Shown: piece by piece, positions 18,201-33,870 of the stretch | Layout of the letters: each line of letters begins with the position of its first letter | Position numbering within the stretch: position 1 is the first letter of the stretch | From: a virus | Lineage: Duplodnaviria > Caudoviricetes | DNA length: 52,293 nucleotides | Strand: one strand, 5' to 3' | IMG/VR virus record: IMGVR_UViG_3300028595_000017 | Location: 1 to 52,293 of that record | Translations under genes and position numbers: made by a program | Notes under the pieces: generated by a model | Seen by the model: the letters and a program-made list of their open reading frames with translations, nothing else | Database searches by the model: none | Told to the model about the DNA's origin: nothing

Positions 18201-20973
18201 TAAAACTAACGTTAAAGAATCACGTAAGTCCGAACAAATAGAAGAGGAATTAACTACGGCAGCAGAGCAAGCTGGCGAAATTATAATTGATGACTATAAT
18301 GATGCTGCTTTACATAGCTTAATAGAAGAGATAAAAATATTAGAGCGAGAATTAAAACACCCAATAGATTCTAGAACACAAGAAATGCTTGAAAAAAGAT
18401 TGGAACAAAATAGACAAGAATTAAAAGAATATGATGAAGGAAAATATATCATTATAGATCAACATGGGAACTATCACAGAATGGATAGTAACTCTGTTCA
18501 AATTACAGATGCTGTAAACCAAAAAGCAAGAGTTAAATCCTTAATTAAAGATGAAAGCGGTTTTATAACTGTTCCTATTACCGATTTAAAAAGTTGGTAT
18601 GAAGGTTATAAATCTTATAAAAATAGAACGATGCGTAGCGGTAATATACCAACAGGTTTTACTGAATATTATGCTAATGCGATGGGCTTTACTCATGCTC
18701 AAGCTGAATCAGTTCTAAAATATAATTATTTTTATCCAGGAGTTTATGACGGAGTAACAGCGATTCCTGGTGTAGGTACTCGCACAGGACATCAAGTTGA
18801 ACCAATCACACTTAAAGTATCTGCAGATTATGAAGTTTCTGGTTATGAAAATGTCGCGGATTGGGCTGGAGATGACATATATGTTGTAGCCCCTCCAGTA
18901 CGACAAGTTGCTACCTCATTGGGTGATGTAAATATTTATGATATTGGAGTAACCGCAGCTGATATGATGTTTTTACAACATATGAAAGTGCCTGAAAAGC
19001 CTTATAGTAATAGAAGTTATCGCACACAAGGTAGATATATTAGAGATCAACTTGGTGATGGCATGTTACATAGATTATATTTAGAATCACAACAGTCTCA
19101 TGCACAAGCTGCAAATATGCGTAATGAAGCGCAAAAGCACGCTGAAGCATTAAAAGATGTACCGGATAGTGTTTTAGAAGACATAGGTATTTTAATTCAA
19201 AGTAAAACACCTGAAGGTTTAGCGGTATTAATAGACGCTGGCTTATCTCATAAAATTGGAAACATTACAATACCTCCTGAATACAGTTGGGTCGAAGGTT
19301 ATGTTCGCTCAGAATACGCTGCTCTAGAAAACCAGATAAATCATGTAAATACAAGAACAAATAAAGCGCCATTTACAGATATAAATGATAATTATTTGTA
19401 TTTTATGTCAGCTGTTGGTGATTATACGAGTTTTGGGCAATATATTAATTTATATTCGGCGACGAATAATCATATCGTTGATTTTATGAAGCAAAAAAAG
19501 ATACCTTTAAAACATGCGGCTAGAGTTAAAGAAGGTGCTTTTCAATTAGAAACCAATGTTAAAGATATTTTAATTGACTTTCATTCCTTATCAGCTGATT
19601 ATATATCAAAACAACCTTTTCTTAGAAAGTGGAAAGTGCTTACAGAACCAATACCAATACAAGGACGTGCAGAACCATTTGATTTACGAAAAGAGAATCC
19701 TTTAGCTAATGAATATATACATAAATATTTAATGTCTGTTAAAGGTACTCACGAATTAAATTTAGGCATACCAGGATCTTTTAGACAAGGTGTTAATTGG
19801 GTACAAACAAAATTAGCTAATTCTACTTTAGCGGGAAATTTACGGACTATTTTAGTTCAAGGTTCTGTAGCAATAGATTTACCTATGCATGTTGAAATGC
19901 CTTATTTAGCTTTGGCTATGCAGAATTTTATTAAACCTAAGCAAATAGAACGAATTATAGAAGAGCAGAATAAGCGTTCAGCTCATCTTAGTACGAGAGA
20001 AGTAGATGCTATAATGAAAGATCTACAAAACCAAAAATTACGCAAAGGCCATCCAATTGTAGACACATTATTAAAAAGTTGGCCTGAACCTTTAAAAGAA
20101 GCTTTACGTAATGGTGATTATTATTCTATGTGGGCGGCAGCAAAAGCATTTAAAGCACTACAAGTACATGATATGTTTTGGGCTCGTTTTACACAACATG
20201 CCGCATATGAACAATACCGGCATAAAGGTTATAACAAAGACTGGGCTACTAAATTAGCTGACTGGACAACGATACAAGCTAATGCCAGTGGCGCACAAAT
20301 AGATGTAAGTCCTATGCAAACGCATTTATATGGACGATGGGCACATATGTTTACGACTTTTAAAATAAATAAAATTAATCAATATATAGATGCTTATAAA
20401 GGACAATTACCACGTGGAAAATGGGAATATGGTTTATACCAATTAGCTGCTACAGCATTTTTAGCCCATTTTACAGAGAATGTTTTAGATGTACGTTCTC
20501 CAGAAGCTGCCTTATTACAGGCAGCGGCTGATGAGTTTTATAAAGGATCTGCTTTAGGAACTCTTATAGATCTTAGTAATGAAATAGCTAATCAAACGAT
20601 TCCTTTTTATAATCAAGACGGAATTACTCCTGGCGCTTTAGCTATGCATATGATTAATGTAGGTCAGGCTATTGGTGGAAAAGCTCATGGAACCACTGTT
20701 GATTTATATATTGATAATACCTGGGTTAAAGTACCAGCAGAATTGATTGCTATGTTAACTATTGGCGTTGGTGTAAGTCAAGGTAAGAGAATATATTGGG
20801 GTACGCAAGGCATGGAAAAACGAGATATCCCAAAGGATGTTGCAATTCGGCAAATGATATTAGGTGCTGCTCAAAATTACCGAACACCAAAAGAACAAAA
20901 ACGCTGGGAACGCAATGTGAAAAGACAACGACGACATGTTAAAGATAGAATAAAAATAAAACATTATTATTAG
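15217..20973 (+). CDS. Large internal virion/ejection protein (1918 aa)
   Basis: Last gene of the structural operon; C-terminal amphipathic region (..AHMFTTFKIN..) typical of large podovirus ejection proteins; internal repeats. Confidence 0.65.
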   Translation: MAENNKKNKINNDGELGLKLDDTYKQVPIDMLTSDKRGYEESLSSPDLLQHTSNFVGNIAYGADSIIDELSGLSSIGPQSKDYKDYPERPLHEQNYLEAFNQDFWHRMQLAKGDYVKNGEQLEPPGIAGDLAVSITKNLGHLATYGLVATPITIATLLENIALSGINLSLLDSDVNISLIDPQIRRDNFNDPNQTDISIKNDLIDPADVASKVSLDKLNSPLQVTMPDGRKQYIKDAEDFLNFIKTNYDFETANKKSYYLAAQHEWLFRQAMKPWDLVKHSETKVVKVPPIYTLYDKNKAFEFEGDTRYPVVLDDKKQIVQFNSAADAQRYIDADKKTRSEYIMDATQQEYWAVATDDNLLQNEDGTIQQFDSADKAYEHISANNMIKPGQRLSDVLQWGLEKAMIPVEAASDYIVPAHLHPAAHAWVKEALTVASFKVVTGSANKITHKIVERRAARSLKKSEESFTEGSKEFKNLKGTEEFFWEAVVDGDKVNGTMQAKNQKAAEQMVREVMNLPDARIEPRKQRVEAVAKSDEKIKPTDPEAKKQRRQMNAKVIQEPKIVANLYDGMKVKAHEAYSRIQEAENNGSGALWEDRKLVDSYRKILEKGDFKDSVFEEYFTPKTEMTSKLSEKESQKVKQGAIDAKGKTVTQKTDKSKSDDTAQSSAKKKAETETKEKKTAKKPPLNTYAYHGYNKTTLQSEYGVIEATSLRDAKKISREKFFNSELYEVSIRQTLKQFTTDILSNAFQGQTFQKRIKYVQYDTPSNIIANKHIKSEGAFKVYFSNGTPTRIDVNPNVFKNKATRGSINYDNWREVVGKELINTPFAEVPIHIKGSRLSGVTATTLYQLQQNIISSADIKADGTHAVNTAELTDFLNITDISTGLTDPIKAYSRYNSIMPAHIKRGVWGLEIEGKELTMKNAKGKKVPVRFKSHEAAADYISTISIIKYGPPGNQRYICGSTRSPMNIPNNTNKSHYNAETEAPEITERRNDLVNKTNVKESRKSEQIEEELTTAAEQAGEIIIDDYNDAALHSLIEEIKILERELKHPIDSRTQEMLEKRLEQNRQELKEYDEGKYIIIDQHGNYHRMDSNSVQITDAVNQKARVKSLIKDESGFITVPITDLKSWYEGYKSYKNRTMRSGNIPTGFTEYYANAMGFTHAQAESVLKYNYFYPGVYDGVTAIPGVGTRTGHQVEPITLKVSADYEVSGYENVADWAGDDIYVVAPPVRQVATSLGDVNIYDIGVTAADMMFLQHMKVPEKPYSNRSYRTQGRYIRDQLGDGMLHRLYLESQQSHAQAANMRNEAQKHAEALKDVPDSVLEDIGILIQSKTPEGLAVLIDAGLSHKIGNITIPPEYSWVEGYVRSEYAALENQINHVNTRTNKAPFTDINDNYLYFMSAVGDYTSFGQYINLYSATNNHIVDFMKQKKIPLKHAARVKEGAFQLETNVKDILIDFHSLSADYISKQPFLRKWKVLTEPIPIQGRAEPFDLRKENPLANEYIHKYLMSVKGTHELNLGIPGSFRQGVNWVQTKLANSTLAGNLRTILVQGSVAIDLPMHVEMPYLALAMQNFIKPKQIERIIEEQNKRSAHLSTREVDAIMKDLQNQKLRKGHPIVDTLLKSWPEPLKEALRNGDYYSMWAAAKAFKALQVHDMFWARFTQHAAYEQYRHKGYNKDWATKLADWTTIQANASGAQIDVSPMQTHLYGRWAHMFTTFKINKINQYIDAYKGQLPRGKWEYGLYQLAATAFLAHFTENVLDVRSPEAALLQAAADEFYKGSALGTLIDLSNEIANQTIPFYNQDGITPGALAMHMINVGQAIGGKAHGTTVDLYIDNTWVKVPAELIAMLTIGVGVSQGKRIYWGTQGMEKRDIPKDVAIRQMILGAAQNYRTPKEQKRWERNVKRQRRHVKDRIKIKHYY
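18207..18227. promoter_or_regulatory. Genome-wide 21-bp double-palindrome site (intragenic, degenerate)
   Basis: TAACGTTA-AAGAA-TCACGTAA inside the 1918-aa gene. Confidence 0.5.
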
Positions 20974-21339: not shown

Positions 21340-22497
21340 TTATAATTCTCCCATATATTTAGCAATTACTGTACCATTTGATTCTACCAATTTAACTTGG
21401 CCAGCTTTTTGTAATGAAATCAATGTGTCTTTAAAAAAAGCTTGTGTCATAGTATTAATGCAACTTGCACGCAATAGTCGTACATCAATATCACCTGCTG
21501 CTTTTATTCTACTAATTAAATCAACTCTTTCTGATAATTCATTCATGGTACTGGAAATATCACTGAACACTAAATTATAAGATTGTTCTAATCTATCCAT
21601 GCAATTTATTGCTCTAATTATCATATCTTTAGTGACTATGTTTGTTCCTTTCATACAAGCAAAAACTATGCATAATTTAAATATCATTAATTCTCTACGT
21701 TGCCATGTATAATCAAAACGCCGACCATAAGGACATACAATTGGTTTACTTAAATAATACTTTTCGTAATATTCATAAGCTGTTTTGTTAAATTTTATAG
21801 GGCCAGTCATACACATCATTTGTTCTAGGTCATACTTTAAATTAGATAAAATAGCTTTATCAACTTCTGGTCTTGCGACTTTTTTCGCAATAGGGCCAGC
21901 GCCAACTAAAATAAAACGAGAAATCATTCCAGATTCTTTTATTCCTATAGGCGAAGTTGCTAGAGTGCTGGGTTGTGTTGCTCCGATTAAAGATACCCAA
22001 ATATTTGATAATTGTGGCTCATCTCTGGATAAAACACCATAATCGAATATTTTCCTACAGTCAAAAAATTGAAGTAACCAAGATAATTTTCTATCATCAT
22101 CTTGAATAAAAGAAGTTAATTCTTGAAAAACTCCTGCTACACTGGTGTGTAAATAATCACCATTATTATATTCAAAAGTAGTTTCAGCATTTGACATTTG
22201 CCTATAAACATATTCAATAGAACCGGCGTCAGGTAAAAAAGTTATGTTTAAATTATCAAGTACATAATCACACATTAAATCAAGACAACAACCTTTTCTA
22301 GCAGCAGGCGGTCCTACTAAAGCTATAAAAAAGTTTGGGTATATTACAAGAGAGCCCAATTCTAGCCAAACTTTTCTTTGTAACACAGCTGATATTGAAA
22401 AAATTCCAGTCCATTCAAAATATAATTTACACGGTTCTTGAATTTTAAAACATTTAATATAATCATTTAAATAGTCTGTACATTTTCTTTTTGACAT
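21340..22497 (-). CDS. DUF3987/YfjI-like AAA+ helicase
   Basis: Walker A-like VGPPAARKG, Walker B-like VFQEL, IGATQP, SGMISRF Arg finger; C-terminal winged-helix-like segment. Confidence 0.75.
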   Translation of the reverse strand: MSKRKCTDYLNDYIKCFKIQEPCKLYFEWTGIFSISAVLQRKVWLELGSLVIYPNFFIALVGPPAARKGCCLDLMCDYVLDNLNITFLPDAGSIEYVYRQMSNAETTFEYNNGDYLHTSVAGVFQELTSFIQDDDRKLSWLLQFFDCRKIFDYGVLSRDEPQLSNIWVSLIGATQPSTLATSPIGIKESGMISRFILVGAGPIAKKVARPEVDKAILSNLKYDLEQMMCMTGPIKFNKTAYEYYEKYYLSKPIVCPYGRRFDYTWQRRELMIFKLCIVFACMKGTNIVTKDMIIRAINCMDRLEQSYNLVFSDISSTMNELSERVDLISRIKAAGDIDVRLLRASCINTMTQAFFKDTLISLQKAGQVKLVESNGTVIAKYMGEL

Positions 22498-24977
22498 ACT
22501 AACTCCCAAGCTTGTTTTAAGTGTTCAGGATTTAACCCTTCGTTAAAATGGTCGTTAAATTCTATGCCATGTTTTTTAACAGTCAGTGTTTTGCTTAAAG
22601 AAACATTAGCGGGTATAACAAATGATCGTCCTTCTGGAGTTTGTAATGGTGTTTCCATTTGATCTGTAATTCGTTTAAGTTGATGACATAAAGATGTCCA
22701 TTCATCTATATCTTTAGGTATTTTAAATTGAAAAACAACTTCGTCATGTATTTGTAATTTTAATTGTAAAGCTTTTCGTGAATCATAATCATTATAATTA
22801 AATATAATAGCATCTCGATTTATTTTATCGCCTACTGTACTTTGTGGATTAAAAGCAAAACCATCACGAAAAGTTTTAGTCTCTAATTTTTTACGACAAT
22901 ACCAAGTTCGTCCTAGAAGATTGGTTAGTTTACGCCCATTAGTTAATTGATTAATAACACCTTTTTGATATACGTTAACTACTCCAGGATTGTGCCTAAA
23001 ATAAATTGTTTGTATTTGTTTTGCTGCGGTTTCTTTCATATCGTTTTCTAATGCAAAACCTTTGACAGACCAACCATAGTTAAAACCGTGATTCATTTGC
23101 TTTGCAACATCTCGCCATGATTTACCTACTATACTTAAAGGACACACATCTTTTTTTACATTAACAGTATTTACAATATTTGGAGCAATGTTATTAACTA
23201 AAATATAGGCAGATTGTGTGTGTACATCACCGCCAACTCGTTCAAATTCTGCTATCATCTCTTCACATTTACCTAAATAAGCGACAATACGATTTTCCGC
23301 TTGACTAAAATCTATAGAAATAAAACCATGATTAGGTGTATCAGGTATTAAAATTTCTCGTAAATTTTTAGGCCAATTTTGCATATTCATGCCTGTACCT
23401 AAAGGACTTGTTACAGATGAAAATCTTGCCCAAATAGTGCCTGCTGGACTCATTGTAAAAATAATTTTACCATTGGGGCTTACGATACTTTCTTTTAAAT
23501 AATTTGAATAAATTTTTCTGTGCTTTCGACAGTTTTGTATAAAGTCAATACCACGTGTACCGTTTCGACGCATTCTTTTCAAAGCTGTTTTATCAAACGA
23601 AAAACCTTTACCAGTTTTTCCTTTATATAGCTTTGTTTGTTTCAACGCATAAAATTCAATTAATTGTTTATTTGAATGTGGGTTTAATTCGATTCCAGCA
23701 AAATCATGCAATTTTTTTAAATAAATCTGTTCTTGTTCTTTATGATATTCAGCTAATTGGCGCATTCGTTTTATGTTACAGTTTAAGCCACTTCGTTGAG
23801 CACTTAATAAAGGTTTAATTAAAGCACATTGCGCTTCAAAAATAGGTTTGTTATCAAGCGCGTCTAAATCACTTAACATATTTTTCATCGCAAGTAAAGT
23901 AGCCATAGAATCCATAGCAGCATAGGTAAAAAAATTAGACCAATCTGAACCGGTATCAAAAAATTTTTTGCCTTCTGCTTTATAGTATTGAAAGGGTGTG
24001 TATAAACTAGTTATTATATCAAGACCGCGTTTAAAACCAGACCAATTTAATCTTTGTGCAATCATAGTATCCCAAAGAGGTCCTTGTGGAATAATACCGT
24101 AGCAATACCATAATACAAAATAATCATACCAACCACCTTGAGTAACTTTTAAAATACAGTTATCTTCTAAAATATGTTGGTATAATTCTAAAAGCATTGT
24201 TTCTGTAGTTTTTGTAAAAGATAATCCTTGTGCATCCATGAAATTAATACACATAGAGACATTGTTAACAGCCATACTGAAACAAGATATTGTTGTATCA
24301 GGCGTTGCATAGTGTATGGTTTCAATATCATGAGCAATTCTTTCGCCTTTTAATCCTTCACTTTTACAATATTTTAAAAAATCCATAGCTGATTTTTTAG
24401 ATGGTCTTATGATTAGTTCAACATCATTAGCAGCTTTTTGCAAAGCTTTAATAGCAATACCTCTTTTAAAATCTTTAAAAACTAAAAAGCGATTTTGCCA
24501 TTGATCTGAATATTGTTCTATATGTTTTGGGTGATAAGTAGGCATTACTGGAATATCGGTTCCTATTAAAGATAATGGTGAACCTCTATATTTTGTAATG
24601 CCTGTTAATTCTGTTAATGCATATAAAGCAACTTCACCGAGTGCAAAAATAACTTTAGGACGAAGCTTACTTAAACTATTGCGAAGTTGGTTTATATAGG
24701 CGACACCCTCTTCAGATAGGCGTGGTTTTTTATCTAAATTAATGTATTGTTTTAAAGGTTTGTCTGCATCCATTATAACATTAAGAAGAAGACAATCACT
24801 TCTAACAATTCCTAACTGTCCTAAAATATCCCATAATAATTTACTAGTATCGCCTAGAAACGGTTTTCTATGAATTAATTCATTCCGGCTTGGTTGATCT
24901 CCGATAATAATGTACAAACTACTGTAATTATCGTTAGCTGGTACAAAAGTTCTTGTTTTATTTATATTTTTAAACAT
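22467..24977 (-). CDS. polA: Family A DNA polymerase with N-terminal uracil-DNA glycosylase-like domain and 3'-5' exonuclease
   Basis: UDG-like GDQPS..E...KPFLG and PTYHP; exo HDIET, YD, YAAMD; Pol motifs DFSQAENR, RDVAKQMNHGFNYG, QIHDE. Confidence 0.92.
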   Translation of the reverse strand: MFKNINKTRTFVPANDNYSSLYIIIGDQPSRNELIHRKPFLGDTSKLLWDILGQLGIVRSDCLLLNVIMDADKPLKQYINLDKKPRLSEEGVAYINQLRNSLSKLRPKVIFALGEVALYALTELTGITKYRGSPLSLIGTDIPVMPTYHPKHIEQYSDQWQNRFLVFKDFKRGIAIKALQKAANDVELIIRPSKKSAMDFLKYCKSEGLKGERIAHDIETIHYATPDTTISCFSMAVNNVSMCINFMDAQGLSFTKTTETMLLELYQHILEDNCILKVTQGGWYDYFVLWYCYGIIPQGPLWDTMIAQRLNWSGFKRGLDIITSLYTPFQYYKAEGKKFFDTGSDWSNFFTYAAMDSMATLLAMKNMLSDLDALDNKPIFEAQCALIKPLLSAQRSGLNCNIKRMRQLAEYHKEQEQIYLKKLHDFAGIELNPHSNKQLIEFYALKQTKLYKGKTGKGFSFDKTALKRMRRNGTRGIDFIQNCRKHRKIYSNYLKESIVSPNGKIIFTMSPAGTIWARFSSVTSPLGTGMNMQNWPKNLREILIPDTPNHGFISIDFSQAENRIVAYLGKCEEMIAEFERVGGDVHTQSAYILVNNIAPNIVNTVNVKKDVCPLSIVGKSWRDVAKQMNHGFNYGWSVKGFALENDMKETAAKQIQTIYFRHNPGVVNVYQKGVINQLTNGRKLTNLLGRTWYCRKKLETKTFRDGFAFNPQSTVGDKINRDAIIFNYNDYDSRKALQLKLQIHDEVVFQFKIPKDIDEWTSLCHQLKRITDQMETPLQTPEGRSFVIPANVSLSKTLTVKKHGIEFNDHFNEGLNPEHLKQAWELVCQKENVQTI

Positions 24978-24988
24978 TTTTTAACCTC

Positions 24989-25009
24989 TATCGTTATTGA
25001 TTAACATTA
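24989..25009. promoter_or_regulatory. Genome-wide 21-bp double-palindrome site
   Basis: TATCGTTA-TTGAT-TAACATTA; overlaps the ParB-MTase stop codon, upstream of the polA SD. Confidence 0.7.
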
Positions 25010-26457
25010 GAGATTTCGGTTATTTGCGCATTAACTAATAATGGAAATTTATCTACATATGTATTCGATAAATCCCATCCAATAGCTGTACGAAAAGTTC
25101 TAAAAGCTGATAGTATAGTTTGACCAGAACCCCCAAAAGGTACACAAACATGCCCACCTGGTTTACAAAAAGTATCTATTACTTCAGCCATTAAAGCATG
25201 TGGTCGTTGTGCCCGATGAATACGTTGTGTTGAAGGCACTAAATTATACTCAAAAACATTAAAATGTCCGGTTTTATTCAATATTGCTTGTGAATTTTTG
25301 TTACCATAAATAAACATATCAATTCTTGCTGTTAATCTATGTTGCGGTTGGTTTGCAGCACCTGTTGGCTTTAACCAATAACCAGGCATTTCGTAAACAT
25401 TTAAACCATTATTTACGTATTTATAAGCATGTTGTTTTTGTGCAATCATTTTTTGTAAGTCATTTTTACGCAAACCTTTGAATATTTGTTTTGTAACTTC
25501 AGTCCAAGAAGGAGAATGCCAGCAAATAAACCAACCGGTCGGTTTTAAAACTCGTAACACTTGTTTATTTATTTCGTACAATGTATCTATATATAATTCT
25601 GGAGACATCTCTATATACTGATCACTTTGTTTTGTTTTTTGATTATTATCCAAATCTATTGCGTAAGGTGGGTCTATCTCAAAAAAATCTACAGATTCAT
25701 CATTAAGCTTTTCAAGCCCATCCAAACAATTACCTTTGTGAAAAGCTTTAAGAATGGTTTTTTTATAACTATTTAAAGAAGTTTGTTCAGCTTCCATTCT
25801 AGCTTTAGCATTACGTCCTTCTATAATTTTCCTAGCTTCAGCAGCTTTAGATTTTAAATCTTTTTGCGATTTGATATCTGAAGGTTTAAATCCCAACGAT
25901 ATCATAAGTTCATAATTACTGAGATCTTGTGAAATTTTTGGCCTAGACACATTCAACATTTTAGCTGTATCTGCCATAGTATGGCCTTTGGCACTAGATG
26001 TAACTTTTCTACCCTTCTTTTTAACCATATATCTATGCAAAAATTGTTCTTGTTCAATTAATTCACCATATTCCAATGGCTTTGTATGCGCATTTTCCCA
26101 ATTTTCATACATTGGAAATAACATGGATTCATAAGATCTGATTAAAAGAGATACTCTAACAGTTTTAAATTCATCATTAGCTTTTTGTAGAAGATTTAAA
26201 GCACTAAAACGTCTGCCTCCTGCAATAAGTCTGTATGTATATCCATCAGTTTGACATTGTTGCAAATCTGCTATATCATCTTCTTCATCTGCTGTTTTTA
26301 ATGCTTCTTCTATATTTTGCACTAAAATCGGATTAATTAAGCCACCTTCTAAAATGCTCTCAGCTAAATCTTCTATCCCAACATACACTTTTCGTGTACG
26401 TAATTTGCCAAAAGCAATTTGTTCAAACGAAACATTTATTGTCTTAAAAAATGTCAT
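24994..26457 (-). CDS. ParB-domain/HTH - DNA amino-methyltransferase fusion
   Basis: ParB boxes IEDLAESILEGGLINPILV and LIAGGRR, EN motif, HTH TMADTAKMLNVSRPKISQDL; MTase motif IV DPPY before motif I PFGGSG (beta-class order). Confidence 0.88.
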   Translation of the reverse strand: MTFFKTINVSFEQIAFGKLRTRKVYVGIEDLAESILEGGLINPILVQNIEEALKTADEEDDIADLQQCQTDGYTYRLIAGGRRFSALNLLQKANDEFKTVRVSLLIRSYESMLFPMYENWENAHTKPLEYGELIEQEQFLHRYMVKKKGRKVTSSAKGHTMADTAKMLNVSRPKISQDLSNYELMISLGFKPSDIKSQKDLKSKAAEARKIIEGRNAKARMEAEQTSLNSYKKTILKAFHKGNCLDGLEKLNDESVDFFEIDPPYAIDLDNNQKTKQSDQYIEMSPELYIDTLYEINKQVLRVLKPTGWFICWHSPSWTEVTKQIFKGLRKNDLQKMIAQKQHAYKYVNNGLNVYEMPGYWLKPTGAANQPQHRLTARIDMFIYGNKNSQAILNKTGHFNVFEYNLVPSTQRIHRAQRPHALMAEVIDTFCKPGGHVCVPFGGSGQTILSAFRTFRTAIGWDLSNTYVDKFPLLVNAQITEISNVNQ

Positions 26458-26669
26458 TCTTTATTCTCCTTTTTTTGAACCAAACCTTTTTCTAATAACG
26501 CTTGTAAAACTTGTTCTATATTAGAACTGTATGAAGCTTTACTCGTTACTTTTGTTTTAGTTGTTTTCTTTGTAACTTTCTTATCTTTTGTTATTTTTTT
26601 CTTTTTTTCAGCATAACGTTGTTCTAAATATTTTAAACGTAAATTTCTATAATAAGATATATTATTCAT
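26454..26669 (-). CDS. Small basic hypothetical protein
   Basis: Lys-rich 71-aa ORF coupled to its neighbours. Confidence 0.55.
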   Translation of the reverse strand: MNNISYYRNLRLKYLEQRYAEKKKKITKDKKVTKKTTKTKVTSKASYSSNIEQVLQALLEKGLVQKKENKE

Positions 26670-26671
26670 GT

Positions 26672-26887
26672 TTATGCCTCGGCTAAAGTACTTTTATTTA
26701 CAGTTAACTTCACATTAAAAAGCCCAGCAGCCATAACAGTACAAAGCACCTTGGGATCAATATCTTCCGCTAAATGCCGCATATGATCAATAAAAGAATT
26801 AAACAATTTTTTTAAATCTCCATGTGAAGAATTTTTAAATAAGAATTGTCTATTTTCCTCTGTTAAGACAACTGTTGTTTTGCTCAT
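26672..26887 (-). CDS. Small protein, possible ribbon-helix-helix DNA binder
   Basis: ATG 26887 with GGAG SD; beta-strand KTTVVL followed by two helices. Confidence 0.5.
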   Translation of the reverse strand: MSKTTVVLTEENRQFLFKNSSHGDLKKLFNSFIDHMRHLAEDIDPKVLCTVMAAGLFNVKLTVNKSTLAEA

Positions 26888-26947
26888 TTTAAAACTCCAA
26901 AATGACAGATTACCTGTGAGATAATCTGTCATTCATTTAGGTAATTG

Positions 26948-27421
26948 TTATTCTTGGTCAATAATGAATTTTTTGATTACAAAACGTGTACCAAAAATTG
27001 GATGATCGTCTTTTCCTATTTGGCAGAAACCACGATGCCCGCCCCAGTCTGCTACAGGCAATGAAGGATCAATATTAAAACATTTACGAATTTTACTGAT
27101 TTGTATTGACATTTTACGCTTTTGGTTGTCTTTAATATTTGAGTCTTTGTGTGGAATGCCAACATAATTTTCAATGTTGTCATAATTTGAAGGATCAGCC
27201 ACCGCATTCGGTGCGGGTGCCAATAACAACATTCCATAATACTTACCATCTTTAGTGGATATAATGCCGCCATTTTTTGCTTTTTTCCAGCCTACGATTT
27301 CCAATTCCATTTCACCGGATGGATAATCTTCAAACGGCGTATCATCAAAATCCATATCATCCATTGATACATTTTCGATAACTGCATCATAGTTATCATT
27401 GTCTACATACTCGTCACCCAT
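26948..27421 (-). CDS. Single-stranded DNA-binding protein (DUF669-like, putative)
   Basis: Acidic N-terminus, PSGEMELEI, ..DWGGHRG..IKKF; adjacent to the Sak4-like ATPase. Confidence 0.6.
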   Translation of the reverse strand: MGDEYVDNDNYDAVIENVSMDDMDFDDTPFEDYPSGEMELEIVGWKKAKNGGIISTKDGKYYGMLLLAPAPNAVADPSNYDNIENYVGIPHKDSNIKDNQKRKMSIQISKIRKCFNIDPSLPVADWGGHRGFCQIGKDDHPIFGTRFVIKKFIIDQE

Positions 27422-27427
27422 GATAAA

Positions 27428-28324
27428 TTACTCCTTTTTTGTTTTAGGGTTTTCATCTCCTAATAAAATATCCCAATTATTAGGTTCCTTATCTTCATAA
27501 GGTCTATTACCTTTTTTTAATAAAGCTTTAATATCTGGTGGTTCAAACTTTTTTAATAAATCACGCCATTTGCAAGATGACGCTATATCATAATCAATCT
27601 GTCTTATGGGTTGTGTTTGTATTTCTGGCGCTTTTCCTTTAGTAGGCACAAGTCGGAAAATATTGCCGACAGCAGTAGCAACCAATTGTCTATTACTACC
27701 ATAAGAATTAAAAGTTAAACTGCCATCAAGTATGATTTTATTATCATCTTCACGTATCGGCACTCTAACATGGTATAATAAAATTACATCACAAGGTAAC
27801 CCGCATAATGTAGTAATAAAATTATGCTCTTTTTGCATAATAGGTAAATAGTCACCTTTATGCGGAGGGTTGTTAGGTTTACCAACATGCGCGCCTTTTG
27901 ATTTTTGAGATTGTACGTATATGTGTTGACGCATAGCAGCTCTATTCCAAGTTGTCATAGAATCAATAACGCAAGTACCAGCATAATCAAAATATCCAGC
28001 GCGTTTATAATATACAAACTCTTTACCAAAATCGCTATATTGCGTAGGTTTATCTTGATCTTCTTTATCAACATAGATAAATTCAAAAGTACCTGGGTCT
28101 ACAATATTTTTAATCCTATCAACGCCACCTGGATCAAGACAAAAATATAAAACAGGTTTTCTGGCAGTCATCATTAACCATGTTTTACCAATGCCTGATT
28201 CGCCATATATTATCATGTTAGTATTATTTTCAGACACAAATTGACGTTTAGCTAAACGATTTTTTTGTCGTTCTCTTGCTTCCTGCATACGTTTTAAACG
28301 TGTTTGATCATCTATCATAGGCAT
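27428..28324 (-). CDS. Sak4-like AAA_24 ATPase / ssDNA-annealing protein
   Basis: IYGESGIGKT Walker A, CVIDSMT Walker B, ILLYH; lies between an exonuclease and SSB. Confidence 0.8.
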   Translation of the reverse strand: MPMIDDQTRLKRMQEARERQKNRLAKRQFVSENNTNMIIYGESGIGKTWLMMTARKPVLYFCLDPGGVDRIKNIVDPGTFEFIYVDKEDQDKPTQYSDFGKEFVYYKRAGYFDYAGTCVIDSMTTWNRAAMRQHIYVQSQKSKGAHVGKPNNPPHKGDYLPIMQKEHNFITTLCGLPCDVILLYHVRVPIREDDNKIILDGSLTFNSYGSNRQLVATAVGNIFRLVPTKGKAPEIQTQPIRQIDYDIASSCKWRDLLKKFEPPDIKALLKKGNRPYEDKEPNNWDILLGDENPKTKKE

Positions 28325-29457
28325 GCTTTATGTTCTCCTGTTAAAGAATTTACTGTTATATAAGTTGAATCTCCATCTAAACCTTCTCCAGGATTCCAAT
28401 ATTTGCGGTAAAAAAGATCTGGATCTTCGATGTCCATTAAAGAAACTGTATTAGAACGAAAAGCACTACATTCTGATTGTAATGGGCAATTAAAAATTTC
28501 AGGTGCTTGTACGTCTGTTTGTGGCCTGTTAAATTTAACGCAATTTTGAAAGTGCTTTTTCCATATAACATGTTTACCTTCGTGTAAGCGCCACTCTTCC
28601 ATATCAGTGCGAATTTGCTGCATTGTAGTATACATAACACGAGTAAAATCAGTTAAATCATTAGGCAAAAAAGTAACAATATACCTCCTATAGTCAAATT
28701 GATTTCGACCATGAGCAGGGTCTGTTAGCTCTTTCGTATAGTCTATTCGTTTGTTTTTCTTAAAAAATGTAGCGTTAAATTGTATACCATTAAAAGAATA
28801 TTCTGTAGGTAAAATATTATATGCTGCAAAATGATATGCCATAGCTTGCATAGAATGGTGTAAAGAACTTTCCCATCTGAAAGCGCTAGAACCGGTTTTG
28901 TGATCACGAATTATTACAGTATCTGTATTTTTATGTCTTAATAAACTATCAAAAGTAAATACAAATTGATCATCATGAATCGGTACTAATCCACGTAATT
29001 CAATAACTGGAACTTTTTTACCTGTAATTTCATCTTTAATAGATAACAATTCATACTCAGAAGGATCAGCAATGCTATATTCAGCCCAATAAAATTTGAT
29101 AGCTTGCAATGCTCGAAAAATATTTTTAGGATACACTTCTTTGTCATAAATATCTTTCGATGTATATCTCTCTTTTTTTAAAGCATTAAGAAAAGCTTGT
29201 TGAGCTTGTTCTAATGTAATATGTTTAGAATCATCCGAACGAAAATTTTGAGATAATTCAGCAACTTCCATAGCAGCATGCCAAGCTTTACCGAATTTAA
29301 GATGGTGGTTTTCATAAGTTAGACCTAAAACATGCCTTAAATAAAAAAGCATAGGACATGTTATATAATCATTGACTTTACTGTTATCTAGATAAAACCA
29401 AGTTTCTTGAAAATCTATTGGCCAATCTAGATCACGATAGTCTTCTAAAGTTATCAT
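28315..29457 (-). CDS. PD-(D/E)XK exonuclease (Cas4/RecB-like, possible Fe-S)
   Basis: N-terminal CP, FGKAWH, D..IIRDHKT, Q...Y, three C-terminal Cys. Confidence 0.8.
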   Translation of the reverse strand: MITLEDYRDLDWPIDFQETWFYLDNSKVNDYITCPMLFYLRHVLGLTYENHHLKFGKAWHAAMEVAELSQNFRSDDSKHITLEQAQQAFLNALKKERYTSKDIYDKEVYPKNIFRALQAIKFYWAEYSIADPSEYELLSIKDEITGKKVPVIELRGLVPIHDDQFVFTFDSLLRHKNTDTVIIRDHKTGSSAFRWESSLHHSMQAMAYHFAAYNILPTEYSFNGIQFNATFFKKNKRIDYTKELTDPAHGRNQFDYRRYIVTFLPNDLTDFTRVMYTTMQQIRTDMEEWRLHEGKHVIWKKHFQNCVKFNRPQTDVQAPEIFNCPLQSECSAFRSNTVSLMDIEDPDLFYRKYWNPGEGLDGDSTYITVNSLTGEHKACL

Positions 29458-29537
29458 AACAGCCTCCTGTTATCGTAATTTTTCTTTAGTTTGTTGATTT
29501 AATTCCTTAATGACAATAAATTGATCTTTGTTAAATT

Positions 29538-30182
29538 TTATGCCTGCATCTTCCTGCGAATTAAATATGTTGAAGGAATTAGAATATTTCGATCCATCGC
29601 TTCCACAATATCTTTCAGCGCTAATACATCACCGTAAGCCTTATGAGCATCCGGAAAACCTTTATTCATCAAATAACGATAAGCTTCTGTTTGTTTTGGC
29701 CACTTATAACCGCTATACTTTTTTTTCTTATTTAAGTGAGGCATTTTCATAATATCTGTCAAAATTAACATTGGATCAAATACAGGTTTGTTTAACAATA
29801 AAGCTTGTAAAGCATTAAACATCTTTACTTCTGTTGCTTTATCGAATAAAAAAGGTAAATCAAATTTTTTGTTATAGATTACCAATACATCAGAACGTTC
29901 AATAGCAATTAAAAATCGCTCAAAATGCGCTCTATCCATTTCTATGTCATTTGGCAAGTCCTCAACACTGATTCTATGCACTCTTTCTGCACCCGCGCTG
30001 ATCGAACGTTGAAGATGCGAATAATTATGGCTTTCAAAATCAGTGAAAGCCCTTTGAGGTTTAAATAACCCCCAAGCATGCTGAACAATAAATTGTTTTA
30101 GTGTCTTTCTATTATCGCGTTGGCGAAAATTAGATGTTTCTGTATCTGTTACTAAATAATTAGTAATGTTTGTTGTCGGCAT
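29538..30182 (-). CDS. DEDDh 3'-5' exonuclease (DnaQ-like)
   Basis: DTETS, YNKKFD and AHKAYGD motifs. Confidence 0.85.
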   Translation of the reverse strand: MPTTNITNYLVTDTETSNFRQRDNRKTLKQFIVQHAWGLFKPQRAFTDFESHNYSHLQRSISAGAERVHRISVEDLPNDIEMDRAHFERFLIAIERSDVLVIYNKKFDLPFLFDKATEVKMFNALQALLLNKPVFDPMLILTDIMKMPHLNKKKKYSGYKWPKQTEAYRYLMNKGFPDAHKAYGDVLALKDIVEAMDRNILIPSTYLIRRKMQA

Positions 30183-30202
30183 AAATTCTCCTTTTTTAAA
30201 TG

Positions 30203-30223
30203 TTACGTTATTTTTTAACGTTA
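30203..30223. promoter_or_regulatory. Genome-wide 21-bp double-palindrome site
   Basis: TTACGTTA-TTTTT-TAACGTTA spanning the ligase stop codon. Confidence 0.72.
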
Positions 30224-31140
30224 GTTGTAAAAAGTTCTAAAGCAGGAATTTCGACAGCAACAGATTCCATTGGTGCATGCCTTTTTGTTAATCGTTGATA
30301 TCGAATACCTAATTCAAAACCCACTAAAGTTTTATGCTTTTTCCAAATATATTCTAATTGTGCATGTGTAAATTGCGATGATCCAACTGTAAAAAATACA
30401 TCTTCATCTGTCTTGCAATAGAAAGACCCAGCTCTATTCAAAGCGACACCATTTTTATCTATAGCTTGATTTATTTTTACAATTAGACATTTCATAGTTT
30501 GGTGTGGTTTAAATTTTAAAGCAGTTGAAACACGTTTACCTCTTGTATAAATATTTGTGTGAGATCGAATGATTGAACCTTCATAACCTTCATCTAAAGC
30601 ATTCTTAGTAAAATCTAACACATCTTGATAGCTATGTATAAAAAAATCTTTTAAAATAAATATATTAGACGCTACTTGTCGAAAATAAGTATGGATAGCT
30701 ATATCTTCAACTATAGTATCCCTATATAAACGGCGCATACAATATTTATCTTTTTCAACAATATCTAAATCATCCTTTTTATAAAAGAAACAATCAAAAA
30801 TATAATAATTTAAATCTGATTCTTGCGGATGATAATTATTAACACGATTTAATGCACCATGAATATCTTGTAATTTCCAATTGTGGTTATAAATTTCACC
30901 GTCTAAACAAAAATTGTTTTTTAGTTGTTCTTTATATAATGAAAATATACCATCTAATTGTTTTAAAATTGTTGGCACACTATTGATAATATTATCTTGT
31001 GGAGAGAATAACATAGAACAGTCATTAGTAAAATAAGCTAAAGCTCTGCATCCATCTAATTTTATTTGAGCTGTTGGATGCACTAATTTTTGAAAAGCTT
31101 TTAAATTGAGATAATTAAATTTCATTGTACTAAATTTCAT
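30208..31140 (-). CDS. ATP-dependent DNA ligase
   Basis: KLDGCR (motif I), LDGEIY, YIFD, GYEGSIIR, LKFK; C-terminal OB fold. Confidence 0.9.
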   Translation of the reverse strand: MKFSTMKFNYLNLKAFQKLVHPTAQIKLDGCRALAYFTNDCSMLFSPQDNIINSVPTILKQLDGIFSLYKEQLKNNFCLDGEIYNHNWKLQDIHGALNRVNNYHPQESDLNYYIFDCFFYKKDDLDIVEKDKYCMRRLYRDTIVEDIAIHTYFRQVASNIFILKDFFIHSYQDVLDFTKNALDEGYEGSIIRSHTNIYTRGKRVSTALKFKPHQTMKCLIVKINQAIDKNGVALNRAGSFYCKTDEDVFFTVGSSQFTHAQLEYIWKKHKTLVGFELGIRYQRLTKRHAPMESVAVEIPALELFTTNVKK

Positions 31141-31154
31141 TATAACTCCAAAAT

Positions 31155-31194
31155 AAAAAAACCGGCATATAACTTTAAATCACATACCGGTTTT
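31155..31194 (-). terminator. Intrinsic terminator
   Basis: Minus strand AAAACCGGTATGTGA...TTATATGCCGG followed by T7. Confidence 0.7.
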
Positions 31195-31215
31195 AATCTA
31201 TAAATTAAATGACGT

Positions 31216-31659
31216 TTAGGCGCTGGTTACCTGTAAATTGTGCTTAGCCAGCAAGGCATTCAATGCATCCAAATCACCGGTAGCCAGATTTGCAAAACCT
31301 TTTTCTATCGAGGCTTTAGAGCCAATATTAAGACCTGGACGATAATCATCCAAAGCCGCAAGTTGCACAAGACCAGCTTGACCTTTTTCTAAACCTTTTC
31401 GAGCCATATTCTGAACGCTGACGGTTACTGCTCGTTTCAAAAGGGCTTTTGTTTCAGCTTCACCAAATTTAGCTACAAAATCGGCCACTGTTGGTTGCAT
31501 ATCTACATAATGTCGGCAACTTGTAGCATTTTCAGGCGATCCTGTAACAATTGTTATTGGATCAGCCCAATCAGGATTGAATGTTTGATCATAGACACCA
31601 GTCGTGCCTTCTTTAGGGTACTGAAGTTTTTTGTCTTCTGTTGACATGTTCTCGGACAT
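31216..31659 (-). CDS. Hypothetical protein, probably abundant
   Basis: AAGGAGA SD, flanked by upstream promoters and a downstream terminator. Confidence 0.7.
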   Translation of the reverse strand: MSENMSTEDKKLQYPKEGTTGVYDQTFNPDWADPITIVTGSPENATSCRHYVDMQPTVADFVAKFGEAETKALLKRAVTVSVQNMARKGLEKGQAGLVQLAALDDYRPGLNIGSKASIEKGFANLATGDLDALNALLAKHNLQVTSA

Positions 31660-31681
31660 AGTAAAAAATCTCCTTTTAAAT

Positions 31682-32020
31682 TTATTCGCCTGCTAAAGGC
31701 GGTTTATTTTTAAGAACTAAACTTCCAATGTTTAGTTCAGCTAAATCTTCTTGTAAAGCAGTTTGAGTTTCTACCTTTGCAATTTTTTTAAGTTTAGGTA
31801 ACTTAAATCGCATTTTATTTGTTAAAAAAGATGTTGCTTCTTGTTCATCAGTAATAACAGCTTCTGGATCGAGATCCTTAATTGATTCAACCAACATTTG
31901 AATTGCAAGTCTTGCTGCATGCGCTGTTGTAGAAGGATAAATTTGGTTACGAATTAGATAATTTATAACAGTAGCAATATCAGCGTACTTGCAACTCAAA
32001 GTTGTTATTCGGTTGGTCAT
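31682..32020 (-). CDS. Hypothetical protein, possible DNA-binding
   Basis: GAGGGAG SD; first gene after tandem sigma70-like promoters. Confidence 0.65.
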   Translation of the reverse strand: MTNRITTLSCKYADIATVINYLIRNQIYPSTTAHAARLAIQMLVESIKDLDPEAVITDEQEATSFLTNKMRFKLPKLKKIAKVETQTALQEDLAELNIGSLVLKNKPPLAGE

Positions 32021-32103
32021 AATTCTTTCTCTCCCTCTTAGAAATTCATAAAATCTGGCCTCTCTGGGTTATTCAGATTTTATAAGAAAAAATATCATAT
32101 CTT

Positions 32104-32131
32104 ATAATAAGGATAATAATATTTTTGTCAA
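32104..32131 (-). promoter_or_regulatory. Sigma70-like promoter
   Basis: TTGACA-16 nt-TATTAT. Confidence 0.55.
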
Positions 32132-32205
32132 TTATTTAATCGGTTTTTTTTACATTTTATTAAGCTTTAAAATTCGTTTTAATTTATTTTTCATTTTGTA
32201 TATTC

Positions 32206-32234
32206 CTTATATATGAAAAATATTTATTTGTCAA
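32206..32234 (-). promoter_or_regulatory. Sigma70-like promoter
   Basis: TTGACA-17 nt-TATAAG. Confidence 0.65.
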
Positions 32235-32319
32235 TATTTAAATGTATTTAAGGCATTTTTCTTAATGATTTCAAGCATTTAAGCGGACATCTAGAAAAAA
32301 AGAGTGCCCGCTCATAAGA

Positions 32320-32538
32320 TTAAAATGGTGAGTTAGTCGGTGATACTATAGGTTTATCAGAAATTTTATCAATACAAATAGCTAATGTTTGTGATAAACA
32401 ATCAACAAATATCTCTTGCACTTGGTTTCTTCCCCAACTCGTTTTTTTATCTAAAGCTCGTGAAAAACGTAATTGAAGATCTGTTATGATCTTGTTAATC
32501 ATAATTTTTTTATCCACAATTATTCTCTTTTGTTTCAT
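32320..32538 (-). CDS. Hypothetical phage protein (KTSWGRN motif)
   Basis: 72-aa ORF overlapping its upstream neighbour. Confidence 0.6.
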   Translation of the reverse strand: MKQKRIIVDKKIMINKIITDLQLRFSRALDKKTSWGRNQVQEIFVDCLSQTLAICIDKISDKPIVSPTNSPF

Positions 32539-32827
32539 GTATTCTTGGAAAAACTTTATTTAAATCACAACCAGGCAGTATATCCAAAACAGTAAAAATG
32601 ATGGATGCGCACTGAATCAATTTATCAATAAATACATCAACATCTGCTGATAATAATGCGTTATTCACAGTTCCAAACTCAGCATTAAAAATAACCATCC
32701 AACCAGACATTGGCATTAAAGTAAAATCAGTATCGTTGAGAGTACTATTTTTAACAAGCTCAAAAATAGTTTGAAGCCTGTCATCTCTGTCTACAGAAAT
32801 TGATAAAGTTTCAAGTAATGTGTTCAT
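32510..32827 (-). CDS. Hypothetical protein
   Basis: GGAGG SD, coupled to 32828..33238. Confidence 0.6.
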   Translation of the reverse strand: MNTLLETLSISVDRDDRLQTIFELVKNSTLNDTDFTLMPMSGWMVIFNAEFGTVNNALLSADVDVFIDKLIQCASIIFTVLDILPGCDLNKVFPRIHETKENNCG

Positions 32828-33238
32828 TTAAACCTCCATTAAATCCTTTAATTGATTTATTAATTTATCCGGTAATTTATTGCACTTAGCAATAAAATCT
32901 CTCAAATCAAAATTTTTTTTATTTGTTGTTTTGTTGATAGAAGAAAAACCATTTATAGTGTATAAACCACTTTCGCTAAGATAATAATCAACACCATCAA
33001 AAGTAATAGAAAAACCAAAAGATAGATATTTTAATACTATCAAAGGTTTTTTTATCCATGTAGGCATATATATTTCTAATAATTCTGCTGTTACATTATT
33101 TATAGTAACGACAGAATTAAACATCTTAGCATTAATATATGCTTCAAAATCGTTTAGATTTTTACATTGATTTTCATGTGATACACCATAACTAGAACCA
33201 GTTTTTCGATTTGTTATTTTAGTGAGTATATGTTTCAT
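32828..33238 (-). CDS. Hypothetical protein, early paralog family A
   Basis: PTWIKKPLIVLKYLSFGFSITFDGVDYY aligns with 34902..35204. Confidence 0.7.
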   Translation of the reverse strand: MKHILTKITNRKTGSSYGVSHENQCKNLNDFEAYINAKMFNSVVTINNVTAELLEIYMPTWIKKPLIVLKYLSFGFSITFDGVDYYLSESGLYTINGFSSINKTTNKKNFDLRDFIAKCNKLPDKLINQLKDLMEV

Positions 33239-33278
33239 TTATTATTTTTCCTTTAATCTTTTGTTGTATATTATATCC

Positions 33279-33626: not shown

Positions 33627-33627
33627 T

Positions 33628-33855: not shown

Positions 33856-33870
33856 CTTTTACTCCTTCTA

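Follow-up and report, generated by a model that had tools for sequence, protein, structure and literature searches.

The ParB-methyltransferase gene and the palindromes of the phage genome

We analyzed the complete genome of a tailed phage (Duplodnaviria; Caudoviricetes; IMG/VR record IMGVR_UViG_3300028595_000017), whose 52,293 nucleotides (nt) are referred to below as the window, with regard to a gene that fuses a ParB-type protein to a DNA methyltransferase (MTase) and to a family of spaced palindromes distributed over the same genome. An initial annotation, made from the sequence alone, had proposed that these palindromes are entry points at which the fusion protein is loaded, slides along the phage DNA and methylates it. 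The gene and its parts are located as follows (aa, amino acids; ORF, open reading frame; HTH, helix-turn-helix; AF2, AlphaFold2):

24994..26457, minus strand: ParB-HTH-MTase fusion gene, 487 aa (ORF translation, Pfam, alignment)
26083..26457, minus strand: putative ParB/Srx-type N-terminal nucleotide-binding domain, about aa 1-125 (profile, AF2 fold, Box II AGGRR, Box III EN)
25897..25986, minus strand: ParB-type HTH, about aa 158-187, with a recognition helix that starts at R172 (DSSP helices 161-167 and 172-187)
25738..25866, minus strand: long helical linker, about aa 198-240 (AF2 model, long helix 198-227)
25051..25692, minus strand: beta-class N6/N4 DNA methyltransferase domain, aa 256-469 (Pfam PF01555)

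The C-terminal half belongs to the beta class of amino-methyltransferases. Pfam N6_N4_Mtase (PF01555) matches aa 256-469 with an E-value of 1.8e-17 over profile positions 1-217 of 221, motif IV (DPPY, near aa 262-265) lies ahead of motif I (FGGSG, near aa 441-445), and the nearest solved structures of the domain are CcrM, M.MboIIA, M.RsrI and N4-cytosine MTases. Presumably the target base is N6-adenine, which is favoured only by the DPPY motif.

Against Pfam ParB_N, the single window sequence scored 21.4 bits, under the cut-off of 26.3; precomputed matches to both PF02195 and PF01555 are recorded for the window protein and for 21 of 25 homologues in a large protein collection. In the Protein Data Bank (PDB), a profile built from 18 N-terminal regions matched the ParB of Caulobacter (1.4e-19), Noc (2e-18), Spo0J (1.5e-17) and KorB (7e-9), and also the ParB of Myxococcus. 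The AF2 model of aa 1-250 (pLDDT 85.5), in which helices 161-167 and 172-187 form the HTH, resembles structures of the N-terminal plus DNA-binding domains (NTD+DBD) of Noc, ParB and KorB with a Foldseek probability of 1.00 (7ol9, 6sdk, 7bm8). Across 18 sequences at about 30% identity, residues R20, R22, G80, R82, R83, E118, E121 and N122 as well as the DPPY and GSG motifs are invariant, so that the Box II pattern GxxRxxA (AGGRRFSA in the window) retains G80, R82 and R83 throughout, and the family consensus carries an LLGKS-x motif at the HTH. The canonical C-terminal dimerisation domain of ParB is absent, its place being taken by the PF01555 MTase. Judged from profiles and the structural model, the ParB assignment of the N-terminal half is secure.

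The domain order given in the initial annotation (ParB N-domain, HTH, helical linker and beta-class MTase) was thus confirmed by Pfam, profile and AF2/Foldseek comparisons, and the motifs named there are all present (GLINPI, AGGRR, EN, and DPPY ahead of FGGSG). Its observation that no ParA is recognisable holds for the single family tested, since CbiA (PF01656) is unmatched in the window while it was detected in 14 of 14 control genomes. The statement that ParB-MTase fusions are known in phages agrees with a survey that describes them as enriched in phages and prophages (PMC12704722).

Outside these coding features, the window contains ten copies of a 23-base-pair (bp) palindrome, CTAAYGTTA-N5-TAACRTTAG, which consists of a 9-bp arm, a 5-bp centre and a second 9-bp arm. 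Its 21-bp core, TAAYGTTA-N5-TAACGTTA, is found with up to three mismatches at positions 5787, 12621, 18207, 24989, 30203, 36817, 42482, 45175, 48306 and 52141. The spacer is fixed: allowing up to two mismatches gave nine sites at a spacer of 5 versus one in total over 11 other spacers (0-4 and 6-11), and a reversed-pattern control gave no site in the window. The sites, which show no consistent orientation and are listed without strand, are:

Site 1, 5786..5808: adjoins the stop codon of ORF 5586..5786, with the ATG at 5829 following 21 nt further on; AAGG..CCTT variant in both arms
Site 2, 12620..12642: overlaps the 3' end of ORF 12206..12649
Site 3, 18206..18228: inside the 1918-aa ORF 15217..20973, where it is read as ..TNVKESRKS..
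Site 4, 24988..25010: overlaps the ParB-MTase stop codon (24994-24996), 11 nt ahead of the ATG of the family A DNA polymerase (PolA)
Site 5, 30202..30224: overlaps the 3' end of the ligase ORF 30208..31140
Site 6, 36816..36838: intergenic
Site 7, 42481..42503: overlaps the 3' end of ORF 42487..43026
Site 8, 45174..45196: weakest copy, three mismatches to the 21-bp core; in an 826-bp divergent intergenic region
Site 9, 48305..48327: TAGCG..CGCTA variant in both arms
Site 10, 52140..52162: 13 nt ahead of the ATG at 52175, a base that is also position 21 because the record ends overlap

Eight of the ten sites fill an intercistronic gap, abutting or overlapping the upstream stop codon, with the next ATG 11-21 nt further on. 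The overlap of one 21-bp site with the stop codon of the fusion gene itself, pointed out in the initial annotation, is borne out by the coordinates (24989-25009 versus 24994-24996). On the 52,154-bp circle, the gaps between sites range from 2693 to 6834 bp with a coefficient of variation (CV) of 0.27, which is more even than uniform placement would give (P = 8.5e-5 when judged by the CV, P = 2.5e-5 when judged by the largest gap). When the nine intergenic sites were compared with a random choice among the 72 gene junctions, the CV was still unusually low (P = 0.009).

Conservation of the palindrome lattice in related phages

A single-protein query matched no relatives and an alignment-based search was needed, which yielded at least 313 relatives of the fusion in IMG/VR. 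The gene order ligase, Cas4-like nuclease, Sak4 ATPase, ParB-MTase, PolA and primase is conserved. A search seeded with PolA added 75 new loci, 73 of which carry the fusion just upstream of PolA, while the other two offer less than 1.5 kilobases (kb) of upstream sequence; the fusion is therefore a core gene of the replication module and not an accessory one. No relative that has PolA but lacks the fusion came up among these 75 loci, and hence none that could have shown a lattice kept without the gene, the case named as refuting in the initial annotation. The nearest named phage is Desulfofustis phage LS06-2018-MD01, with the same gene order and an identity of 31% for ParB-MTase and 34% for PolA. 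It contains nine copies of a different palindrome, CTATGTCCC-AANTT-GGGACATAG; the paper on this phage mentions neither palindromes nor ParB.

De novo detection revealed a family of at least three sites with 9-5-9 geometry in 48 of 70 non-redundant loci of at least 15 kb, compared to 1 of 70 shuffled loci. The arms are specific to each phage (CTATGTTCA, CTATGGTAA, CTATGGAAA, CTGTATGCA, CTCCGTAAC, GATCGTTTA, GTCCGGTTA and others), and what is conserved across the relatives despite this change is the 9-5-9 geometry and a mostly AT-rich centre. The detection is conservative, and a motif-guided scan recovered sites in further loci (L121, L089 and L027). Whole-record scans of four complete relatives, including the Desulfofustis phage, gave 9-20 sites each and none for the control pattern, and in the three complete relatives tested the sites are spaced more evenly than expected by chance (P = 0.0007, 0.005 and 0.03). 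The lattice is a clade-wide architecture in a large clade of environmental phages, not the feature of one genome.

Two variations of the palindrome were seen in individual loci. In L152, the 9-5-9 geometry comes with a GC-rich centre (CCGGG/CCCGG; sites at 1172, 2358, 5516, 9461, 12338, 13959 and 18985). In L068/L103, each site (4470, 7965, 12109 and 16040) is composed of a GTTAA half and a GGTAA half, a systematic hetero-palindrome whose orientation alternates along the locus.

Co-variation between the recognition helix and the palindrome arms

As the arms are phage-specific, the protein that reads the sites must itself be encoded by the phage and co-evolve with them. Of the window proteins, only nine have a detectable counterpart in the Desulfofustis phage (TerL, portal, primase, PolA, ParB-MTase, a 157-aa protein, Sak4, Cas4-like nuclease and ligase), and ParB-MTase is the only HTH protein among them. 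The other 45 window proteins scanned with Pfam showed no DNA-binding family above cut-off. Two small proteins that had been suggested as alternative binders (26672..26887 and 31682..32020) have neither a family match nor a detectable homologue in 81 loci; for four small window ORFs, homologues were found in 0 of 81 loci.

Co-variation was measured as the mutual information between 403 alignment columns of the fusion and the majority base at each arm position in 53 non-redundant phages, after 4 of 57 (L031, L114, L121 and L143) had been dropped with families that looked spurious by eye and shared no arm consensus. For arm base 6, the top column is that of window residue R172 (z about 7-8.6, with a runner-up of about 4), and for arm base 7 it is the adjacent P173 (z 8.1). 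D178, N181 and M185 of the same helix, together with Q198, rank first or near the top for arm positions 4 and 8, and 9 of the 30 best column-base pairs fall inside the 29-column HTH window. None of PolA, primase, Sak4 and Cas4-like nuclease has a column that reaches the z of R172 for base 6. A His or Arg in the R172 column goes with G at base 6 in 11 of 13 phages versus 1 of 40 with other residues (Fisher 1.2e-8, for a grouping that was picked after the table had been seen). Arg and His are classic readers of guanine. Both traits change at least ten times on the tree. With an MTase tree that leaves out the DNA-binding region, independent contrasts gave about seven changes in the same direction, none in the opposite direction and one tie (p 0.016); with a tree of PolA, the count was 6:0:1 (p 0.031).

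In Caulobacter ParB, G170, K171 and S172 contact parS and R173 is the base-contacting specificity residue (PMC7383237). Window R172, with which the recognition helix begins behind the G-K-S turn, matches this R173, a mapping taken from the G-K-S motif and the modelled helix start, whereas the HMMER alignment to Noc is in another register. A co-variation of recognition helix and motif across relatives, which the initial annotation had proposed to look for, is seen in both the top-ranking column and the contrasts. From these correlations we consider it probable that ParB-MTase binds the palindromes, which is the best-supported reading of the data. On the more far-reaching reading of the clamp as a delivery vehicle (see below), the specificity code would also be partly readable, in that the first residues of the recognition helix would pair with arm bases 6 and 7 and a His or Arg would read G.

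Position of the sites relative to genes

In many relatives, a site lies exactly between a TAA stop codon and the Shine-Dalgarno sequence, and an arm ending in ...CAAAG runs into GAG to give AAAGGAG. The polarity of the relatives' sites is restricted to the degenerate positions 3 and 8. We compared the pairing of the two arms in 54 non-redundant loci, using 162 sites that all lie in co-directional modules. Where the arms depart from Watson-Crick pairing on the sense strand, G.U is the rarest class with just 32 pairs, compared to 72 A.C pairs and 135 transversion mismatches, the last being mostly A facing A at position 3 or T facing T at position 2. With so few G.U pairs relative to the other classes, a sense-strand hairpin is not maintained. 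Ahead of the ribosome-binding site, the sense strand is simply rich in A.

A further line of evidence comes from the sites inside the giant ORF, which is 1918 aa long in the window and is the only multi-kilobase stretch without an intergenic gap. This ORF contains a copy of the palindrome family in 23 of the 39 loci that include it (two of these 23 families look spurious), and the encoded peptide tracks the arm of the phage, with SVQKLNK for GTTCA arms, YGKKIT for GGTAA, DRLxxKRT for CGTTTA and TNVKESRKS in the window. Since the peptide follows the arm sequence of each phage, the DNA motif dictates the protein at this position, which argues for a function at the DNA level that requires a site inside this stretch. 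Taken together, the intragenic copies and the evenness of the lattice point to a process of limited range that starts at the sites.

Intrinsic terminators were considered and rejected as an identity of the palindromes, which are absent from the terminator scan and have flanks without T-runs. Sigma-70-like promoters numbered 96 in a scan of 23001..43000 versus 108.9 in shuffles, and none coincided with a site. No phage RNA polymerase was found, and Pfam, PHROGs, PDB and Atlas gave no support for one in the 924-aa and 1918-aa proteins.

Predicted dimer of the fusion protein

Structure prediction of the fusion as a homodimer passed with a median ipSAE of 0.61 (runs 0.68, 0.58 and 0.61) versus 0.00 for the best of three controls; the runs agree in at least 77% of contacts, with a partner pLDDT of at least 74. 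In calibration, the tool passed 20 of 30 solved homodimers versus 1 of 23 single chains, a figure that applies only roughly here, where our own alignment was supplied. One predicted interface lies in the N-domain (aa 3-6, 34-45, 79 and 101-120) and covers GLINPI, the Box II glycine and Box III, and a second one lies in the MTase domain (aa 315-320, 355-401 and 429). With a closure on either side of the HTH and linker, the predicted dimer has the ring topology of a ParB, which a clamp needs, and the MTase-MTase interface may substitute for the missing C-terminal domain of ParB.

A proposed model for loading and sliding of the ParB-MTase

The explanation that we favour for these features is that the 23-bp palindromes would act at the DNA level as parS-like binding sites, to which the ParB-MTase encoded by the same phage would bind through its HTH. 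As in the homologous ParB, Noc and KorB, the two 9-bp arms would be recognised by a dimer; their conserved cores lie about one helical turn apart across the 5-bp AT-rich centre. Nucleotide binding at the N-domain might then close the ring, the MTase-MTase dimer serving as the second closure, and the clamp would leave the site and diffuse over a few kilobases, carrying the methyltransferase along the phage DNA. With evenly spaced entry sites, one of them written into the giant ORF, no part of the genome would be more than about 3-4 kb away from an entry point. In this way, modification would be directed preferentially and in cis to phage DNA, probably for protection from restriction.

The steps that we infer in this model are binding itself, which nucleotide takes part and what it does, the sliding, the methylation and the protective purpose. 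The complete chain from binding through loading and sliding to methylation in cis is a tentative proposal to which we would give somewhat less than an even chance, and load-and-slide methylation, as we infer it, is put forward with the same reserve. It is rather doubtful, though in line with the same data, that a ParB-type nucleotide-gated clamp has been turned into a delivery vehicle, for which 10-20 private and evenly spaced entry sites, placed within coding sequence as well, would restrict loading to the phage and permit processive methylation in cis. Self-marking would then go by address and not by sequence motif.

Of the load-and-slide idea in the initial annotation, the link between HTH and palindromes stands at the sequence level through the co-variation, a clamp topology is predicted, and the spaced lattice proved real and even; the spacing of about 6 kb is not kept in the relatives. 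Several observations weigh against the model. The spacing between sites in relatives ranges from 0.5 to 8.5 kb, leaving the value of 6 kb as a property of this phage only, and early regions with sites 0.5-1.6 kb apart are denser than coverage by sliding would need. In 22 of 70 loci, de novo detection found no family, although the guided scan recovered sites in some of them. The L107/L065 group keeps the fusion with only 0-1 site in the motif-guided scan (over 19 kb in the L107 group), and the high-GC outgroups MW202489.1 and Mel-JY34, in which a ParB-MTase lies beside PolA, showed only palindrome families driven by composition. As the fusion is kept in some phages without a detectable lattice, the lattice is not a general requirement of the enzyme.

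Further points against the model concern the sites themselves and the protein. Most sites merge with the Shine-Dalgarno sequence that follows them, and in many relatives their polarity goes with the direction of the gene; a role in expression could be read from this. Sites 1 and 9 of the window each carry the same rare variant in both arms, so that the inverted symmetry is kept; this is not explained by independent recognition of half-sites, and one possibility is homogenisation of the palindrome by template switching. At Box III (ENxxR), position 125 is Arg in at least 90% of relatives but Thr in the window, with an adjacent Lys, while E121 and N122 are kept. The positive dimer prediction may in part be a memory of N-engaged ParB dimers and of dimers of the CcrM/MboIIA type, and it shows likeness rather than binding. 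A sliding-window Mantel scan peaked at a partial r of 0.37 in the DNA-binding region of the fusion, but PolA (0.34), Sak4 (0.38) and Cas4-like nuclease (0.34) reach matching peaks, and the scan is therefore not specific evidence. Finally, the survey of ParB folds describes their nucleotide preference as unpredictable and, in its passages on the N6N4-MTase fusions, reports no NTP binding (PMC12704722).

Alternative explanations for the palindromes

The main rival is a regulatory or organising role similar to that of KorB, in which the fusion would bind the palindromes as KorB/OB-like operators or genome organisers to silence, insulate, time or compact transcription units or the phage chromosome. 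The ParB module would either remain at the sites or spread from them, and the MTase would act locally or independently, with no need of the lattice for its coverage. The same binding evidence from co-variation and dimer prediction applies here, and both the polar position of sites between stop codon and Shine-Dalgarno sequence and their distances of 0.5-1.6 kb in early and replication modules are in its favour. Moreover, KorB is a ParB-family CTP clamp that represses from operators located 4 bp to more than 1 kb from promoters (PMC11790492), and VirB and BisD are described as further ParB-like regulators. However, we observed neither an enrichment of sigma-70 promoters nor their coincidence with the sites, and copies inside a 5.8-kb ORF and an even distribution over the genome would be unexpected of operators. 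No KorA/TrbA-like partner was detected among the 46 Pfam-scanned proteins, where small proteins may escape, and the obligate MTase fusion across hundreds of relatives would be left unexplained. We regard this role as rather unlikely. Less likely still is that another, unrecognised phage protein binds the palindromes, for example a small and fast-evolving dimeric regulator that would act as a global repressor similar to those of the stoperators, and that the fusion is unrelated to them. A family could not be assigned to most early proteins, co-occurrence of the fusion with the lattice is uninformative in view of its status as a core gene, some phages keep it without a lattice, and the Mantel scan is non-specific. 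The stoperators provide a precedent with many repressor sites across Cluster A mycobacteriophage genomes (PMC9283540), but these sites are asymmetric and bound by a monomer, whereas the sites described here are palindromic. A separate binder would also have to account for a co-variation localised to the first two residues of the recognition helix, for 6-7 contrasts with none opposed and for the lack of any small protein detectably conserved between the window and lattice-bearing relatives (four ORFs, 81 loci).

Among the remaining explanations, hairpins in polycistronic mRNA that would process or stabilise the transcript, control its translation as operators or terminate it would agree with the typical geometry of a 9-bp stem with a 5-nt loop, with the position directly 5' of the Shine-Dalgarno sequence and with the two window sites whose pairing is preserved by the same variant in both arms. 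They are nevertheless very improbable in view of the arm pairs, where G.U is rarer than both A.C and transversions and position 3 typically has A opposite A; in addition, arm sequences do not differ within one phage, although structure alone would not call for this, no T-run follows the sites, a GC-rich terminator is found elsewhere (31158-31194), and copies lie within an ORF. Phage-specific promoters of the T7 type or of the hairpin-like N4 type, read by an unrecognised RNA polymerase or sigma-like factor of the phage, could account for 10-20 conserved, phage-specific elements of about 23 bp that lie just upstream of genes with a polarity following the strand. Such sets of elements recall the promoter sets of phage RNA polymerases. 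We nevertheless give promoters hardly any weight, as no RNA polymerase was found (the 924-aa protein is matched by Laminin_G_3 and the 1918-aa protein is likened to internal virion protein D), the window sites lack a consistent orientation and palindromy is unexpected of promoters. Similarly remote is a role as sites for replication, recombination, nicking or packaging, for instance primosome loading or T5-like/tf-like nick sites. Even spacing and intragenic copies would fit such a role, and motif-associated nicks are known in other phages (PMC11780129), but these known nick motifs are strand-specific, non-palindromic and unevenly spread, so that the analogy was set aside, and neither primase nor PolA, Sak4 or Cas4-like nuclease contains a column that co-varies at the level of the HTH.

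Relation to known ParB systems

Returning to the reading in which ParB-MTase itself binds the palindromes, the nearest analogue of the pair is KorB-OB of plasmid RK2. RK2 carries 12 OB sites, and the ParA partner of KorB is IncC. Like the fusion, KorB combines a ParB N-domain and an HTH with a multi-copy palindrome on a replicon of about 50-60 kb; KorB is known to slide over kilobases (PMC11790492). Its NTD+DBD structure (8qa9) is among the fold matches of the fusion (TM-scores 0.43/0.50). In contrast to the fusion, KorB has a C-terminal dimerisation domain, the clamp-locking partners KorA and TrbA and no fused enzyme, and its operators lie beside promoters, whereas the lattice sites are evenly spaced and some are inside ORFs. 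Noc has many sites scattered over the chromosome. Both ParB-parS and Noc-NBS share the fold and motifs of the fusion (profile E-values 1.4e-19 to 8e-18), and in ParB-parS the palindrome is read by a G-K-S-x helix whose first residue sets base specificity (PMC7383237). They differ in their 16-bp sites without the 5-bp spacer, in having no fused MTase and in their effector, which is ParA or the membrane; parS sites cluster near the origin and do not form a lattice.

The IR sites of phage N15 are dispersed and affect phage gene expression. Like the fusion, N15 SopB is a member of the ParB family encoded by a phage, and its several palindromic sites, IR1-4, lie apart from one another in the N15 genome (PMC7205306), but it serves partition of a plasmid-prophage together with SopA and has four sites, no MTase and no even spacing. 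Cluster A stoperators are comparable in their tens of phage-specific sites in short intergenic gaps and in the co-evolving phage protein (PMC9283540, PMC6550527); they differ as asymmetric 13-mers that are oriented with transcription and bound by a monomeric immunity repressor, and neither ParB nor MTase appears in these accounts. The fusions described in the survey have the same architecture of ParB-CTPase fold and N6_N4 MTase and are among the commonest ParB-like proteins of phages; they are given there as of unknown function, 'perhaps in anti-defense', and the passages on them name no cognate DNA site, lattice or loading model (PMC12704722). A preprint on Asgard mobile genetic elements mentions a ParB-MTase and makes no claim of sliding. 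The literature searched contained neither an account of a lattice of this kind nor cognate sites for ParB-MTase fusions.

Candidate cognate sites with a conserved geometry are now available for more than 50 phages, and the correlation of residue and base lends itself to a test in which a single residue and a single base pair are exchanged. The evenness and the ORF-embedded sites add evidence from genome architecture for an action on DNA within a limited range, and the model offers a testable idea of how a common phage enzyme finds its own DNA. If both binding and spreading are true, the fusion would be the first known ParB clamp with a catalytic passenger and a novel means by which viral DNA is selectively self-marked; orthogonal pairs of ParB and site could also be drawn from these phages for labelling DNA. 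Should binding alone be true, the lattice would still be a phage-wide, KorB-like network undescribed in the literature searched.

Other features of the phage genome

The genome has a GC content of 32% and a CheckV completeness of 100%, with the structural genes on the plus strand and the replication and early genes on the minus strand. An exact direct repeat of 126 bp (window 14-139 and 52168-52293) joins the record ends, leaving a unique length of 52,154 bp (about 52.15 kb); the repeat is either a short terminal repeat or an overlap left by assembly, the genome then being circular or permuted. Further annotated features are:

22467..24977, minus strand: PolA, directly downstream of the ParB-MTase gene
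27428..28324: Sak4-like AAA_24 protein, not ParA (Pfam)
30208..31140: ligase ORF, its 3' end overlapped by site 5
31158-31194, minus strand: strong canonical intrinsic terminator with a 17-pair stem and a T-run after it, in the gap that separates ORF 31216..31659 from the ligase gene
38114-38740, minus strand: 5'-deoxyribonucleotidase NT5C (E-value 2.9e-14), among the early genes
15217..20973, plus strand: 1918-aa ORF, containing site 3
48679-51453, plus strand: 924-aa Laminin_G_3 protein (E-value 5.7e-20), upstream of a lysozyme-like ORF

The canonical terminator at 31158-31194 indicates that the phage uses ordinary terminators distinct from the palindromes. For the 1918-aa protein, no Pfam, PHROG or PDB sequence match was obtained; by language-model features, the clusters that come closest to it bear the name 'Internal virion protein D family' (score 0.96). 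Its position is conserved in the Desulfofustis phage, yet the two proteins show no BLAST-detectable likeness. The 924-aa Laminin_G_3 protein is probably a receptor-binding or fibre protein. The N-terminus of PolA (..GDQPS..E..PF.GD..) bears what we take to be a resemblance, and only that, to a uracil-DNA-glycosylase-type domain fused to the polymerase. In four relatives (L014, L024, L025 and L075), the PolA ORFs are 1136-1148 aa long, about 300 aa longer than in the window, and match the window PolA in two pieces, which suggests an insertion, possibly an intein or an extra domain.

The leftward early genes are separated from the rightward genes by the 826-bp divergent intergenic region (44918-45742), which has long A/T tracts. 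It contains A-rich repeats phased at 9 bp (45063-45129) and a 69-nt imperfect inverted repeat (45064-45132 / 45359-45427), and is a candidate for an early promoter or origin region.

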